Assembly (NCBI GenBank): GCA_027592325.1
Contig: JAQCKO010000001.1
Coordinates: forward strand, 20,247-84,246
Length of the DNA: 64,000 nucleotides
Direction: 5' to 3'
Origin: a bacterium
Lineage (GTDB): Bacteria > Patescibacteriota > Patescibacteriia > UBA9934
A program made the translations under genes and the position numbers. The notes under the pieces are model-generated. The model was given only the letters and a program-made list of their open reading frames with translations, was not told where the DNA came from and did no database searches. Below, piece after piece: positions 1 through 61,055 of the stretch (position 1 is its first letter; the number at the start of each line of letters is the position of its first letter).

Positions 1-313
1 ATGTGCCACCATTCGCGCCAGAACATCGTTCTCAAAGGAGGTGTCGGGATTCAAAAGCAATACATAATCCCCATCTGATCGTTTCATCCCTTGATTGACG
101 GCTGCAGCAAATCCTCGATTTTCTGGATTTGGCATATAGATCGCGCCGTATTTCGCTGCGAGCTCCTCGGTTTCTTGCCGCCCAGCATTATCGACGATAA
201 TCAACTCGTAATTGATTCCTTCAGAAACTTCTACTGAAGAAAAGCAGTCTCGCAGAACATGAAGATCTTCTTTATAGGTGACAACAATAATCGATAAGTC
301 GAGCGGTTTCATA
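1..313 (-). CDS. Family 2 glycosyltransferase, 3'-truncated at the window edge (start codon at 313)
   Basis: Minus-strand translation from ATG at 313 reads MKPLDLSIIVVTYKEDLHVLRDC...IIVDNAG...DGDYVLLLNPD, the GT2 N-terminal Rossmann signature. It overlaps the upstream gene stop by 4 nt. Absent from the ORF track because it runs off the window. Confidence 0.6.
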
Positions 314-52357: not shown

Positions 52358-53356
52358 ATGGCGCAACTTCGAAACAAACTATCAAAGGAAGATTGCCTTA
52401 AAAAACTCGCTGCGGAAGATTTTCGTCGCGTGTCTATTTCGTTTTATCGGTATGTGCGCATAGAAGACCCCCAATCCTTCCGAGACATCCTTTGGACCGA
52501 ATGGAATGATCTTGGAATTTTTGGACGTATTTATGTTTCAAAGGAAGGGATCAATGCCCAATTTTCTGTTCCAGAACACAATGTTGAGCGACTTCGAGCC
52601 GCGGTAGATGCACGTCCCGAGCTAAACGCCGTTCCGTTCAAAATTGGTGTAGAAGAAAATGGTGTGAGTTTTTGGAAACTCACTATTAAGGTGCGTGAGC
52701 ATATTCTTGCGCATGGAATTGATGATCTCGACATGACCACGGCGGAAGTCGGCGAACATCTTCCAGCAGAATCGTACAATGCCTTCATTGAAAATGGAGC
52801 CACCGTAGTTGATATGCGCAATAAGTATGAGAGTGACATTGGGCATTTTGAAGGAGCAGTACGGCCAAAGGCGCAAACATTCCGTGAAGAACTTCCAGAG
52901 GTTTTGGATGCGCTTAAAGGAAAAGAAGAAGAACCCGTTCTTTTGTACTGCACTGGGGGCATTCGCTGCGAGCCAACGAGCGCGTATTTGAAGCAACATG
53001 GATTCAAAGAAGTATATCAGCTAAATGGCGGGATTATTCAATATTCACACGAGGTGAAAGAAAAAGGCCTCGATTCCAAATATATTGGAAAGAATTTCGT
53101 TTTTGATGGTCGGCGTGACGAAACAATTACCGGCGATGTTCTCGGTACTTGCGCGATTTGTCATGCACCGAGCGATGAGTATATTGACTGCGCCAATATT
53201 GCCTGTCATGTGATGTTTATTGAATGCGGAGCTTGTCAAGAAACGCTTGAACAATGCTGTAGCGACGAATGCAAACGTGTGAACAACCTTCCTGCAGCAG
53301 AACAAAAAGCCCTCCGCCGAGGAAAAAAGGCGAAGTTTGTTTATAGTAGAACGTAG
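52358..53356 (+). CDS. trhO: Rhodanese-domain tRNA uridine(34) hydroxylase (YceA/TrhO, UPF0176)
   Basis: 332 aa. Rhodanese active Cys in CTGGIRCE. C-terminal Cys-rich tail. Confidence 0.8.
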   Translation: MAQLRNKLSKEDCLKKLAAEDFRRVSISFYRYVRIEDPQSFRDILWTEWNDLGIFGRIYVSKEGINAQFSVPEHNVERLRAAVDARPELNAVPFKIGVEENGVSFWKLTIKVREHILAHGIDDLDMTTAEVGEHLPAESYNAFIENGATVVDMRNKYESDIGHFEGAVRPKAQTFREELPEVLDALKGKEEEPVLLYCTGGIRCEPTSAYLKQHGFKEVYQLNGGIIQYSHEVKEKGLDSKYIGKNFVFDGRRDETITGDVLGTCAICHAPSDEYIDCANIACHVMFIECGACQETLEQCCSDECKRVNNLPAAEQKALRRGKKAKFVYSRT

Positions 53357-53411: not shown

Positions 53412-54026
53412 CTACTTCCTCCTCGCCACCAACACCCCATGATCCATATCTAAAATCTCGATGCCTTCATACTTCCCTGATGCCCGTACATAGGCATCAA
53501 ATTTCGCGACTTTGTCTGGGTAGTCGAGCATATTATCGGCAACAATAATCGATCCAGACCGAAGCAGCGGCTCGGCCAATTTCAAATAGACATGATACTG
53601 ACTTTTATTCGCATCTAGGAAGAGAAGATCGATAGGGCGGGCGATTCCTACAAGTGCTGATTCGATTTCCGCTTCAATAAGTTCTACATTCGCTGCTTCT
53701 ACCGCTTCAAAATACTCTCTTGCCTCCTTTGCCTTATACGGTTCCTTTTCAATGGTGAGAATATTTCCCCCATAACTCTCTGCCGCTTTCGCCATCCATA
53801 ATGTGGAATACCCGACAGAAGTTCCCAGCTCCACAATATGAGCGGGTTGCTGTGTTCTGATCAGTTGCGAGATCCACTCTGCGGTTTTACGTCCAATCAT
53901 CCAAAAACCAACATTATGGTCCACACCCCACTTTTTTTTATACTCGTCAGAAATTCCCGTTTCACGGAATGCTGCATCGAGTCGCTCTAAACGCGAAGTG
54001 ATTTCTTGAAAACGTTGTTCATTCAT
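53412..54026 (-). CDS. Class I SAM-dependent O-methyltransferase (family 3, caffeoyl-CoA OMT-like)
   Basis: 204 aa. IVELGTSVGYSTLW ... LLFLDANK. Confidence 0.8.
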   Translation of the reverse strand: MNEQRFQEITSRLERLDAAFRETGISDEYKKKWGVDHNVGFWMIGRKTAEWISQLIRTQQPAHIVELGTSVGYSTLWMAKAAESYGGNILTIEKEPYKAKEAREYFEAVEAANVELIEAEIESALVGIARPIDLLFLDANKSQYHVYLKLAEPLLRSGSIIVADNMLDYPDKVAKFDAYVRASGKYEGIEILDMDHGVLVARRK

Positions 54027-54045
54027 GCAAAAAAGACTACCATAC

Positions 54046-54074
54046 TTGACAAAAATTCACAGATAGTACAATGT
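54046..54074 (+). promoter_or_regulatory. Candidate promoter TTGACA ... TACAAT/CAATGT for an intergenic plus-strand transcript
   Basis: TTGACA at 54046-54051. -10-like TACAAT at 54067-54072 (15-nt spacer) or CAATGT at 54069-54074 (17-nt spacer). Confidence 0.35.
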
Positions 54075-54079
54075 TGTAT

Positions 54080-54250
54080 CTAGTACTTTAGGATCAGCAA
54101 TGATCCAATCTCGTTGCCATGGCGTGTGGGTGGGCACGCTATGCGCATGTACGGCGCAGACAATTCGGTTGGGGAGCTGATTTGTTCGCGGCATGCGGGG
54201 CGTCACCTGATTCGTTTAGCTGAACGATGATGGTGGCGCCCGCCTTTTTT
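54080..54250 (+). ncRNA. Candidate small RNA between the promoter and the first of two tandem intrinsic terminators
   Basis: A GGGGCGTCACC...GGTGGCGCCC stem followed by T9 at ~54195-54250. The second terminator (15-bp stem CGCCTTCTGAAATGG / CCATTTCAGAAGGCG + T8) is at 54297-54385. Confidence 0.3.
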
Positions 54251-54296
54251 TTCTTGACCATTTAAACGAATCACGCTAGGCTCACAGTAAGTACAC

Positions 54297-54385
54297 TCAC
54301 GCCTTCTGAAATGGTTCCCGTAGGTTTTTCGTCTTCTCCATCGTGCCTTCGCAAAGAGCCATTTCAGAAGGCGTCTTTTTTTTCA
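54297..54385 (+). terminator. Strong intrinsic terminator (15-bp perfect stem, long loop, T8)
   Basis: Overlaps the 3' end of the minus-strand DUF1653 gene. Confidence 0.55.
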
Positions 54386-54594
54386 ACAGTTTTTTTAAAC
54401 CTCGGACGGCCATTCACTTTCTCAAGAAACATCGTTTTTGGCCTCGCCCAGAAGCGACCATCTTGGCCTCGGTAGATGACCAGCATCTCCCTCGTTTCTG
54501 TTTGCTCGGCCTCAAAAAGGACTTCGTAAATTCCACCTTTATAGTGCTTGTACGTGCCAGGTTCGATCATACTTGACAAGTATAGCCGAGACAA
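54364..54594 (-). CDS. DUF1653-domain protein
   Basis: 76 aa. YKHYKGGIYEV core typical of DUF1653. Confidence 0.65.
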   Translation of the reverse strand: MSRLYLSSMIEPGTYKHYKGGIYEVLFEAEQTETREMLVIYRGQDGRFWARPKTMFLEKVNGRPRFKKTVEKKDAF

Positions 54595-54616: not shown

Positions 54617-54686
54617 CAGAGCCGAAGCTGAGTGGTCAGCGCCGACATGGCAGTCGGAGGTCGCAGGTTCGAATCCTGCCGGCTCT
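54617..54686 (+). tRNA. tRNA-like gene with canonical acceptor, D and T arms (GGTTCGAATCC) but a 6-nt anticodon loop (ATGGCA); identity undetermined, possibly GGC-like
   Basis: AGAGCCG/CGGCTCT acceptor, GCTG-AGTGGT-CAGC D-arm, GCAGG-TTCGAAT-CCTGC T-arm. The only consistent anticodon stem (CCGAC/GTCGG) leaves a 6-nt loop. No encoded CCA. Confidence 0.55.
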
Positions 54687-54688
54687 AT

Positions 54689-54760
54689 TGCATCTGTAGC
54701 TCAACTTGCTAGAGCAGCGAACATGGTTCGAAGGTCAACGGTTCAAACCCGGTCAGATGC
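54689..54760 (+). tRNA. tRNA-like gene / possible tRNA pseudogene: D-loop lacks GG, and the anticodon arm is 2 nt short (CGAA-CATGG-TTCG)
   Basis: GCATCTG/CAGATGC acceptor, GCTC-AACTTGCTA-GAGC D-arm, AACGG-TTCAAAC-CCGGT T-arm (one mismatch). 2 nt after the previous tRNA. Confidence 0.4.
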
Positions 54761-54774
54761 ATTCTTCCGCGCAT

Positions 54775-54797
54775 GCGCGTTTTCTTCGTCCGTCATT
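54775..54797 (+). terminator. Short palindromic hairpin CGCGCATGCGCG + TTTTCTTCG after the tRNA pair
   Basis: Likely a tRNA transcript terminator. Confidence 0.4.
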
Positions 54798-55097
54798 TCG
54801 AAAGATTTGGCGGGCGTTTTCCTTTACAAAATCTGCAAATTTTGGCAAACTTTTCATTGCCGGCAGGCTAGGGAGAAGAACATCTGAAGCGCACTCCTCC
54901 CTCCACGTGACGGACCACGGCACCGGCCCTTACGACTCACCTCTCCCTGAGGTGGGTCGTCTTCTTTTTTTAAGTGTCGCTTTGCCCGACTTCTTGCCAC
55001 ATGTAATCGCTCAGTGAATCCGCCCTGCATGTCAACATCTGGCCCAAGCGATTGACCTTCGCTCTCAGCTCGGTGGCACAAGAATGTTTTGCATACA

Positions 55098-60047: not shown

Positions 60048-61055
60048 ATGACCTGTAAGCTGAAACGTTTCTCCTTACCTCTAACCACTACCATGACCTT
60101 CGAAGAACACCTTCAATCTATCTTCCCTGGCCGGCTGAAAACAAATGAGTTGCTTGGAAAACATTTAAATTTTCGCATTGGCGGTCCTGCCCGATTTTTT
60201 GCTGAGGTAAAAACCGTCGAAGAGCTTGTCCATGCTATTCAGCTCTGTAAAGAACATGAGGTCGAATTCTTCGTACTTGGCGGAGGGTCGAATACGCTTG
60301 CAAGCGATGAAGGATTTGATGGCGTCGTCCTTAAGCTTGCTATGCGTGACATTGTAATCAACGGAACACATCTTGTTGCTGATGCTGGAGCAATATCTGC
60401 ATCTGTTGCGCGCAAAACGGCCGATGCTGGGCTTGCCGGATTCACTTGGGCCATCTCGCTCCCAGGAACCATAGGCGGTGCGATTCGTGGAAATGCTGGC
60501 TGTTTTGGAGGCGAAATGAAAGATACCGTGACCAAGGTGGAAGTGTATCGTGTTGGTCAGATTGTGGAACTCACCAATCGCGATTTAAAATTTGGATACC
60601 GAGATTCGTGGGTTAAACACTCAGACGATATTGTTCTGCGGGTCTACATGGAGCTGCAGAAAAGCAATCGTGAAGAACTTCTTGCCGAACTGAAAGCCAT
60701 TGTTGAAAAACGCAAAGCATCACAGCCACTTTATGCAGGAAGCGCCGGATGCATTTTCAAAAACTATGAGATAGATTCCGTCGAGGAGCTGAAACGGTTG
60801 AAGGCCTATGATGTCTTCCCCGAAGCCATGCTAGAAGCGCGTCGTATTTCGGCTGGCTGGGTGATTGACCAGCTGGACCTCAAAGGAAAGCAAATTGGCG
60901 GCGCGAAAGTAAGCGACGAGCATGGGAATTTCGTCGTAAATTTAGGCGATGCAACAGCAGATGACATTGTGCAACTTGTTGCGCTCATCAAAACAAAAGC
61001 GCGCAACACCTTCGGTATTCAGCTGCACGAGGAAATTAAGTACTTAGGGTTTTAG
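60048..61055 (+). CDS. murB: UDP-N-acetylenolpyruvoylglucosamine reductase (FAD-binding); alternative start at 60096
   Basis: 335 aa. FRIGGPARFF ... FVLGGGSN FAD-binding PCMH motifs. Confidence 0.85.
   Translation: MTCKLKRFSLPLTTTMTFEEHLQSIFPGRLKTNELLGKHLNFRIGGPARFFAEVKTVEELVHAIQLCKEHEVEFFVLGGGSNTLASDEGFDGVVLKLAMRDIVINGTHLVADAGAISASVARKTADAGLAGFTWAISLPGTIGGAIRGNAGCFGGEMKDTVTKVEVYRVGQIVELTNRDLKFGYRDSWVKHSDDIVLRVYMELQKSNREELLAELKAIVEKRKASQPLYAGSAGCIFKNYEIDSVEELKRLKAYDVFPEAMLEARRISAGWVIDQLDLKGKQIGGAKVSDEHGNFVVNLGDATADDIVQLVALIKTKARNTFGIQLHEEIKYLGF

Follow-up and report, generated by a model that had tools for sequence, protein, structure and literature searches.

An intergenic spacer in an uncultured bacterium (GTDB lineage Bacteria; Patescibacteriota; Patescibacteriia; UBA9934) is considered here as the site of a candidate small RNA (sRNA) gene, termed sRNA1, wherein a promoter (P1) is followed by a structured region of variable sequence and by a terminator hairpin (H4) of conserved sequence. 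The locus occupies positions 54046-54385 of the window, by which the whole analysed stretch of 64,000 nucleotides (nt) is meant (contig JAQCKO010000001.1 of GenBank assembly GCA_027592325.1, positions 20,247 to 84,246, forward strand). Among named homologues, the best match to the flanking proteins is a Peregrinibacteria protein at 46% identity.

The spacer and its predicted transcription units

The genes and features of the locus are as follows, with hairpins taken from predicted folds of the plus strand.

53412-54026 (-): gene for an S-adenosylmethionine-dependent O-methyltransferase, YrrM/TrmR-like (PF01596/PF13578), divergent from P1
54027-54363: spacer of 337 base pairs (bp) between two minus-strand genes, with the start codon of the methyltransferase gene (54026) on one side and the stop codon of DUF1653 (54364) on the other
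54041-54072 (+): P1, with the extended -35 block CATACTTGACAA (54041-54052) including TTGACA (54046-54051), a 15-nt spacer and the -10 element TACAAT (54067-54072)
54079-54252 (+): sRNA1, a predicted transcript of ~175 nt, its start placed from the -10 element and its end at the T-run
54091-54106 (+): body hairpin H1, predicted
~54115-54147 (+): body hairpin H2, predicted, with the G-rich loop UGGGUG (loop sequence GGGUGGGCACGC)
~54153-54192 (+): body hairpin H3, predicted, with the loop GGGG
54195-54252 (+): T1, an intrinsic terminator made up of H4 and U8, with a T-run of eight (T8) at 54245-54252
54198-54207/54232-54241 (+): outer stem of H4, 10 bp
54208-54211 and 54228-54231 (+): symmetric 4x4 internal loop of H4, UGAU/UGAU
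54212-54217/54222-54227 (+): inner stem of H4, 6 bp, with a 4-nt apical loop
54254-54282 (+): P2, a putative promoter-like site, TTGACC (54254-54259), 17 nt, TAGGCT (54277-54282)
54277-54296 (+): conserved block TAGGCTC-N3-GTAAGTACA, kept in the relative
54289-54383 (+): RNA2, a putative short unit of ~95 nt ending at the long hairpin T2
54299-54314/54359-54374 (+): stem of T2, 16 bp and perfect (19 pairs in the predicted fold), with a 44-nt loop and T8 at 54376-54383
54364-54570 (-): DUF1653 gene (PF07866, E = 3.3e-18), convergent with sRNA1 and RNA2

All comparative statements concern two sequences, namely the window and one relative, the latter represented by the Logan contigs L003 and L016, which overlap and come from SRR31252250, and by a fragment from SRR31252252. 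Only one closer relative was present in the protein collection, and its methyltransferase and DUF1653 proteins are each 81% identical to those of the window. Neutral divergence is near saturation, with 58% of the methyltransferase third positions and 44% of the four-fold sites (20/45) identical. In methyltransferase relatives at up to 50% identity, the spacer is missing and different genes lie immediately upstream, DUF1653 relatives at up to 61% identity lie in a different gene context, a scan of genome contigs for more homologues returned distant Neoehrlichia matches only, and blastn against phage and plasmid collections gave no match.

P1 matches the consensus at 11 of 12 positions. At the same place the relative carries TTGACA-15-TATAGT, with equal 15-nt spacing and TGG before TATAGT; the core CATACTTGACAAAAA is identical at 15 of 15 positions, and divergence begins directly after the -10 element. 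An own promoter kept in relatives, the mark of a stand-alone sRNA gene, is accordingly present for P1 in the one relative available. With two occurrences of TTGACA-N15-TANNNT in the window and 0.72 expected, the pattern is by itself not rare. The exact 11-mer ATACTTGACAA, for which arithmetic from the window length gives ~0.03 expected matches, is present at only two sites in the 64 kilobases: at P1 (54042) and at 54569, in the promoter of an operon of two genes resembling those of transfer RNAs (tRNAs), described further below. An extended -35 element of 12-13 nt is common to these two promoters in both lineages, the relative having TCATACTTGACAA at both positions. That P1 is a genuine plus-strand promoter and does more than serve methyltransferase control is argued most strongly by this sharing with a local stable-RNA promoter.

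The predicted transcript is strongly structured. The segment 54078-54245 folds at -77.4 kcal/mol on the plus strand (z-score -4.7) and at -51.9 kcal/mol on the minus strand (z -2.0), and for the window's body alone the plus-strand z-score is -3.96; the G+C content of the sRNA1 region is 54%, against 46% for the window. Minimum-free-energy and centroid folds alike give four separate hairpins in both lineages, three of them in the body position in the relative too. By eye, the closing stem of H3 is kept, compensatory changes number one or two and some blocks are common, but this is given little weight because the outcome hinges on how the alignment is drawn.

H4 is the best-conserved part of sRNA1. 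Folded alone, the plus-strand hairpin reaches -27.7 kcal/mol (z -5.0), and its 10+6-bp GC-rich stem followed by T8 has the form of an intrinsic terminator. Together with its T-run it is identical to the relative in 52 of 60 columns, with 18 of 18 pairs kept and neither UGAU strand altered; apart from one pair that goes from U-A to U·G, the two sequences differ only in the apical loop and in a basal bulge, and no pair is changed on both sides. Terminators are selected for shape, and whereas T2 and the neighbouring terminators drift in sequence, H4 does not, which argues that its sequence is read by something. In the UGAU/UGAU loop, sheared G·A pairs in tandem with U·U on either side are conceivable, an arrangement known from C'/D'-type motifs. 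H4 is single-copy in the window, where blastn and an H4 covariance model returned generic terminators of at most 18 bits and a chance coding match at 60990-61030. Outside the window, an H4 DNA pattern matched viral and Joint Genome Institute (JGI) metagenome collections six times, always by chance inside coding regions such as MutL, and a protein search with the sole frame open across H4, which sought spuriously called open reading frames (ORFs) in other assemblies, yielded no candidate.

Downstream of T1, the relative retains a counterpart of P2 (TAGACA-18-TAGGCT), followed likewise by the TAGGCTC-N3-GTAAGTACA block. The plus strand of T2 folds alone at -36.2 kcal/mol (z -8.0), and its 16-19-bp stem with T8 also has the form of an intrinsic terminator, albeit with an atypically large 44-nt loop; terminator scanning, limited to loops of at most 8 nt, passes it over. 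In the relative 13 of 13 T2 pairs are kept, two of them by compensatory change (U-A to C-G and A-U to G-C), a T-run follows directly, and the loop block CGTCTTCTCCAT is retained. The 3' arm and T-run of T2 overlap the last seven DUF1653 codons and the stop codon on the opposite strand in the window; as the relative has T2 and its T-run beyond the DUF1653 stop codon, outside the reading frame, the conservation of T2 is free of coding constraint. The number of terminator-like sites in the window is no higher than in shuffled sequence, and the features are set above chance by their conservation in the relative and by the folding z-scores given above for sRNA1, H4 and T2.

The relative carries ~140 nt of additional sequence between the GTAAGTACA block and T2, and its hairpins H4 and T2 lie ~300 nt apart. 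This insertion (L003 ~55-195, minus strand of locus) contains a hairpin with the loop UGGGGAG, a GCAA-loop hairpin CAGCAAUG with an 8-mer equal to one in H1 of the window, and two repeats of AAGGAGGU(GG)UAGCU together with the reverse complement of a minus-strand terminator. Within the T2 loop, a minus-strand micro-ORF (54297-54341, -) reads MEKTKNLREPFQKA in the window and MEETQELCQYDLRKA in the relative, with common ends, and its conserved block appears on the plus strand as CGUCUYCUCCAU, a C/U-rich loop motif.

These results largely bear out the initial annotation, which had described the 337-bp spacer between two minus-strand genes (here assigned to the methyltransferase and DUF1653), TTGACA at 54046 with a -10-like hexamer 15-17 nt further on (TACAAT, at 15 nt), and a plus-strand non-coding unit with a strong intrinsic terminator; the conservation of the spacer in relatives, which it had suggested examining, extends to promoter and terminator in the one relative. 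Smaller corrections are needed at both hairpins, where the GC stem of the first is followed by T8 instead of the T9 reported and the perfect stem of the second, with its T8, measures 16 bp instead of 15. The larger departure concerns their relation, since they had been taken as two tandem terminators of one abundant sRNA. Given the conserved P2-like site, the conserved 5' block between the hairpins and the ~300-nt separation in the relative, H4 and T2 look like the ends of two units, and a conserved promoter-like site precedes each unit. Either way, read-through from T1 would also be caught at T2.

Readings of the locus

The reading that we favour, with confidence only slightly above even, is that sRNA1 is a stand-alone, constitutively terminated sRNA in which H4 serves both as terminator and as a recognised module, most likely one that binds a protein. 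The sigma-70-type promoter TTGACA-15-TACAAT would fire away from the methyltransferase gene, and the transcript would fold into three variable hairpins followed by H4 and U8, which would halt RNA polymerase without a protein factor. RNA2 would start at the weaker P2 just past T1 and end at T2 and U8 on the DUF1653 stop codon; because T2 and U8 fall exactly there, plus-strand transcription would be kept from running antisense into DUF1653. Once produced, sRNA1 would act in trans, and its partner, most likely a protein, would recognise H4, which is conserved in sequence and shape. H4 would double as terminator and 3' stabiliser, and the fast-changing 5' body would be the lineage-specific part. 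The evidence, which is that of sequence comparison, is firm for conservation of the promoter and of the terminator hairpin, the latter in a sequence-specific way, whereas the region between the two varies.

Several observations weigh against this proposal. The body of sRNA1 is ~47% identical to that of the relative, which is the neutral level, and its length differs between the lineages (118 vs 140 nt); the relative's body has a shuffle-like fold on the plus strand (z -0.85) and a better one on the minus strand (z -2.7). The 15-nt spacer of P1 is short for a sigma-70 promoter, and a standard scan, which admits spacers of 16-18 nt, does not list it; moreover, the promoter region also holds the methyltransferase 5' end, which could account for part of its conservation. 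The -10 element of P2 is weak, matching at three of six positions, so RNA2 as a separate transcript is regarded as putative. Predicted duplexes of sRNA1 with RNA2 or with RNA3, a further candidate described below (G-rich loops vs C-rich motifs), are at shuffle level (z -0.7 to +0.7). Finally, covariation carries no statistical weight with a single comparator lineage, the two double changes in T2 being reached by shuffles in 123 of 500 trials.

Some of these points would suit a locus that merely insulates its neighbours, wherein P1 is kept for methyltransferase control, the hairpins only stop stray transcription before DUF1653, and the transcript is a functionless by-product. A body evolving at the neutral rate, with its change of length and no significant fold in the relative, would then be expected, 20 nt separate P1 from the start codon of the methyltransferase gene, and T2 sits exactly at the DUF1653 stop. 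A mere terminator, however, needs only its shape, and the stems and internal loop of H4 are invariant at saturated neutral divergence, whereas T2 and other terminators vary; the extended -35 that also drives the tRNA-like operon likewise reads as a genuine plus-strand promoter element. This explanation is considered unlikely.

It is highly unlikely that the conserved element belongs to the minus strand, as a cis-regulatory intercistronic RNA of a DUF1653-methyltransferase operon or as a long methyltransferase 5' leader. The window shows no minus-strand terminator between the two genes, and the better minus-strand fold of the relative's body would fit such an element, but the relative has a canonical minus-strand terminator of its own right after DUF1653, between T2 and sRNA1 (GGGCGGGCCGCCC + T7), and a comparison of the two lineages revealed no conserved minus-strand promoter-like site in the spacer. 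The polarity of the hairpins points the same way, as T-runs lie 3' of the stems on the plus strand only, the corresponding A-runs of the minus strand preceding them. H4 further contains three G·U pairs (one invariant U·G and two more that are G·U in one lineage), which become A·C mismatches when read on the minus strand, and its energies are -27.7 and -29.5 kcal/mol on the plus strand vs -20.3 and -19.7 kcal/mol on the minus strand in the two lineages, a plus-strand surplus of 7-10 kcal/mol in both. No Rfam cis-regulatory model matched either strand. On the strength of T-run polarity, the G·U pairs and the separate DUF1653 terminator of the relative, the reservation attached to the initial annotation, that the hairpins might simply end the flanking minus-strand genes, can be set aside.

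More doubtful again is a conditional terminator, in which H1-H3 would respond to a tRNA or a ligand and thereby govern read-through at H4, yielding RNA antisense to DUF1653 or controlling RNA2. The order of promoter, structured domain, terminator and then convergent gene is compatible with this idea, as are the tRNA-related genes next to the locus, and the H2 loop GGGUGGGCACGC bears a loose resemblance to the T-box core. Yet inspection of the predicted fold revealed no segment that would compete for an arm of H4, conservation is lowest in the supposed sensor domain, a second strong terminator follows 130 nt downstream, and no riboswitch or T-box model of Rfam matches even at E = 10.

The chances are very slim that sRNA1 is a highly divergent housekeeping RNA such as 6S. 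Its size of 175-200 nt would suit, as would its strong promoter of the tRNA-like operon type and its position in a stable-RNA gene cluster. The predicted fold, however, comprises four separate hairpins, with H4 as a self-contained 3' hairpin, rather than a rod with a closing stem and central bubble, and the models of 6S, signal recognition particle (SRP) RNA, RNase P and transfer-messenger RNA (tmRNA) give nothing.

Barely tenable is a small protein, encoded either by the 26-codon ORF at 54100-54180, whose ATG (54100) is preceded at 6 nt by AGGA, or by the micro-ORF in the T2 loop: the former lacks a counterpart in the relative, and the common ends of MEKTKNLREPFQKA and MEETQELCQYDLRKA are those of the conserved hairpin arm and loop block, the middle differing in sequence and length. 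A comparison of spacer ORFs on both strands between window and relative found none in common except short peptides that are by-products of H4. In the minus-strand frame ending at a conserved TGA, five of five differences are non-synonymous and the nine flanking conserved codons have no silent change, which is the opposite of a coding pattern; an ORF with coding substitutions, as a small protein or type I toxin would show, is thus absent. The earlier statement that the plus strand bears no coding sequence therefore holds in that no ORF is conserved, although the plus-strand spacer ORFs number three, of 26, 34 and 38 codons, with the AGGA before the first, rather than a single 30-codon ORF without a ribosome-binding site.

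The neighbouring genes and small-RNA cluster

Sequence features beyond the spacer, on both sides, place sRNA1 in an environment related to tRNAs. They are listed below.

52358-53356 (+): trhO, encoding a tRNA U34 hydroxylase (NCBIfam NF001133 TrhO equivalog, 241.6 bits vs a cutoff of 170)
54569 (+): -35 block of the tRNA-like operon promoter, ATACTTGACAA, then 17 nt and TAACGT (TAATAT in the relative)
54618-54687 (+): tRNA-like gene A, with a 6-nt loop AUGGCA in the anticodon position; called 'tRNA-???' by ARAGORN
54690-54761 (+): tRNA-like gene B, with a 3-nt loop AUG on a 5-bp stem; missed by ARAGORN
54786-54826 (+): tRNA-like operon terminator, CGUCCGUCA...UGGCGGGCG + UUUUCCUUU, in a 48-nt block almost identical in the relative
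~54845-54970 (+): RNA3, a third small-RNA candidate, with a conserved TTTACA-17 promoter-like site and the C-rich CUCCUCCCUCCAC
L016 4721-4792, 4609-4713 and 4529-4600 (minus strand of locus): tRNA-like genes of the relative, including an extra gene of 105 nt with a 5-nt loop

The trhO gene is convergent with the methyltransferase gene in the window and in distant relatives, a synteny that persists down to 40% identity. TrhO and YrrM/TrmR jointly make 5-methoxyuridine at tRNA position 34 (mo5U34) (PMC6599085), and since trhO adjoins the methyltransferase gene, the methyltransferase of the window is probably TrmR-like. The two genes probably constitute the two-step mo5U34 pathway.

On the other side, sRNA1, RNA2, the two tRNA-like genes with their terminator, and RNA3 form a plus-strand cluster of small-RNA genes, the right-hand part of which is conserved in the relative. 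The tRNA-like genes A and B score 52.8 and 42.9 bits with the Rfam tRNA model and have good acceptor, D and T arms, and none of those in the window or the relative has a 7-nt anticodon loop; in the relative, compensatory changes preserve the 5-bp stem of gene B (CGAAC/GUUCG vs UGAGC/GCUCA). They may thus not be decoding tRNAs. A six-base complementarity between UGCCAU of sRNA1 and the AUGGCA loop of gene A was discarded as chance, since it is lost in the relative. RNA3 ends in a 12-bp hairpin (54932-54960) with a T-run, kept in the relative with stem changes, and has no Rfam match. In a more distant relative at 50% identity, two protein genes fill the stretch from secA to the methyltransferase gene instead, which makes the RNA cluster and DUF1653 a lineage-specific block.

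Further observations were made at the edges of this cluster. A perfect 15-bp palindrome, ATACTTGACAAGTAT (54569-54583), overlaps both the DUF1653 start codon and the -35 element of the tRNA-like operon, and half of it recurs at P1. A TATACT -10 element lies 8 nt upstream of the DUF1653 ATG, which has no Shine-Dalgarno sequence; for this reason the DUF1653 messenger RNA (mRNA), and perhaps that of the methyltransferase, may be leaderless or nearly so. In the relative, a tRNA gene (L016 3962-4122, minus strand of locus; Rfam 45.6 bits) carries an insertion of ~90 nt in its anticodon region and adjoins a gene of the 23S_rRNA_IVP protein family; the window has no counterpart.

A bolder proposal, which we hold to be distinctly unlikely, would make sRNA1 the founder of a new class of structured RNAs, with H4 as a specific protein-recognition module acting together with RNA2, the two tRNA-like RNAs and RNA3 and tied to tRNA metabolism. 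If true, this would amount to a non-coding RNA system beside genes for tRNA U34 hydroxylation and methylation (trhO and the trmR-like gene) in an uncultured, small-genome, Peregrinibacteria-like lineage. A full-text literature search for regulatory RNAs of Peregrinibacteria and allied bacteria with small genomes found nothing relevant, and an sRNA with a conserved promoter and an invariant terminator hairpin would give a concrete entry point to such RNAs. At present, the value of one orphan sRNA candidate with one relative lies mostly in annotation and in the pointer to an odd RNA cluster nearby.

Comparison with known RNA families and systems

The 4227 models of Rfam 15, which include 6S, SRP, RNase P, tmRNA, T-box and riboswitches, matched nothing in 54046-54385 when gathering thresholds were applied; with the limit relaxed to E = 10, both strands of the spacer returned only noise of at most 21 bits, and the relative's copy was negative at E up to 1. 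The expectation that 6S, SRP, RNase P and tmRNA would prove unlikely, originally formed by eye, is thereby upheld at gathering and permissive thresholds alike.

T-box leaders share with the locus a GGGUGG-containing segment, a terminator hairpin and tRNA-related neighbours; however, the locus has no downstream coding gene on the same strand, no Rfam T-box match and no antiterminator alternative. The arrangement differs from that of a riboswitch, T-box or attenuator in general, as the next plus-strand features are RNA2 and then, past the convergent gene, the tRNA-like genes. Nor does it resemble a repeat element, such as a repetitive extragenic palindrome (REP) or a miniature inverted-repeat transposable element (MITE), or an array of the CRISPR or TIGR type, being single-copy in the window and free of any array.

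The internal loop of H4 also recalls box C'/D' motifs of the kink-loop (K-loop) kind, in that its CUGA 5' strand and AUGAUGG 3' strand could form the U·U, G·A, A·G and U·U pairs of such motifs, a resemblance only. Motifs of this kind occur in archaeal C/D sRNAs and in TIGR-Tas guide RNAs (PMC12045711), in comparison with which H4 is a single hairpin outside any array, with a symmetric loop that lacks the 3-nt bulge of a kink-turn (K-turn). No Nop-domain or L7Ae gene was seen adjoining the locus, and with neither an array nor a Nop-type gene in sight the TIGR-Tas or box C/D idea was dropped as more than a resemblance.

With 6S RNA, sRNA1 has in common a similar length, a strong promoter and a location among stable-RNA genes, but its fold lacks the rod, closing stem and central bubble, and the Rfam 6S model does not match. 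RNAs of the CsrB/RsmZ type similarly have several hairpins with short purine-rich loops, comparable to the UUGG.G.GG-like loops seen in both lineages, and protein binding may be the function here as well; nevertheless, sRNA1 has no GGA loop motifs and only two or three such loops, with a motif that is loosely common.

Lastly, stand-alone trans-acting sRNAs, particularly the Hfq-independent ones of Gram-positive bacteria such as RsaE/RoxS and SR1, may be compared. Unlike these, sRNA1 shows no sequence or covariance-model similarity to described families, its apical loops are G-rich (UGGGUG, GGGG) rather than C-rich loops pairing with ribosome-binding sites, and its best-conserved part is the terminator hairpin rather than a single-stranded seed. 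Like them, the predicted RNA is intergenic and non-coding, has its own promoter, measures 100-250 nt, comprises several hairpins, includes the terminator hairpin within the mature RNA, and combines a fast-evolving 5' part with a conserved promoter and terminator. To judge from these features, sRNA1 is most likely an unclassified stand-alone bacterial sRNA that belongs to no described family.

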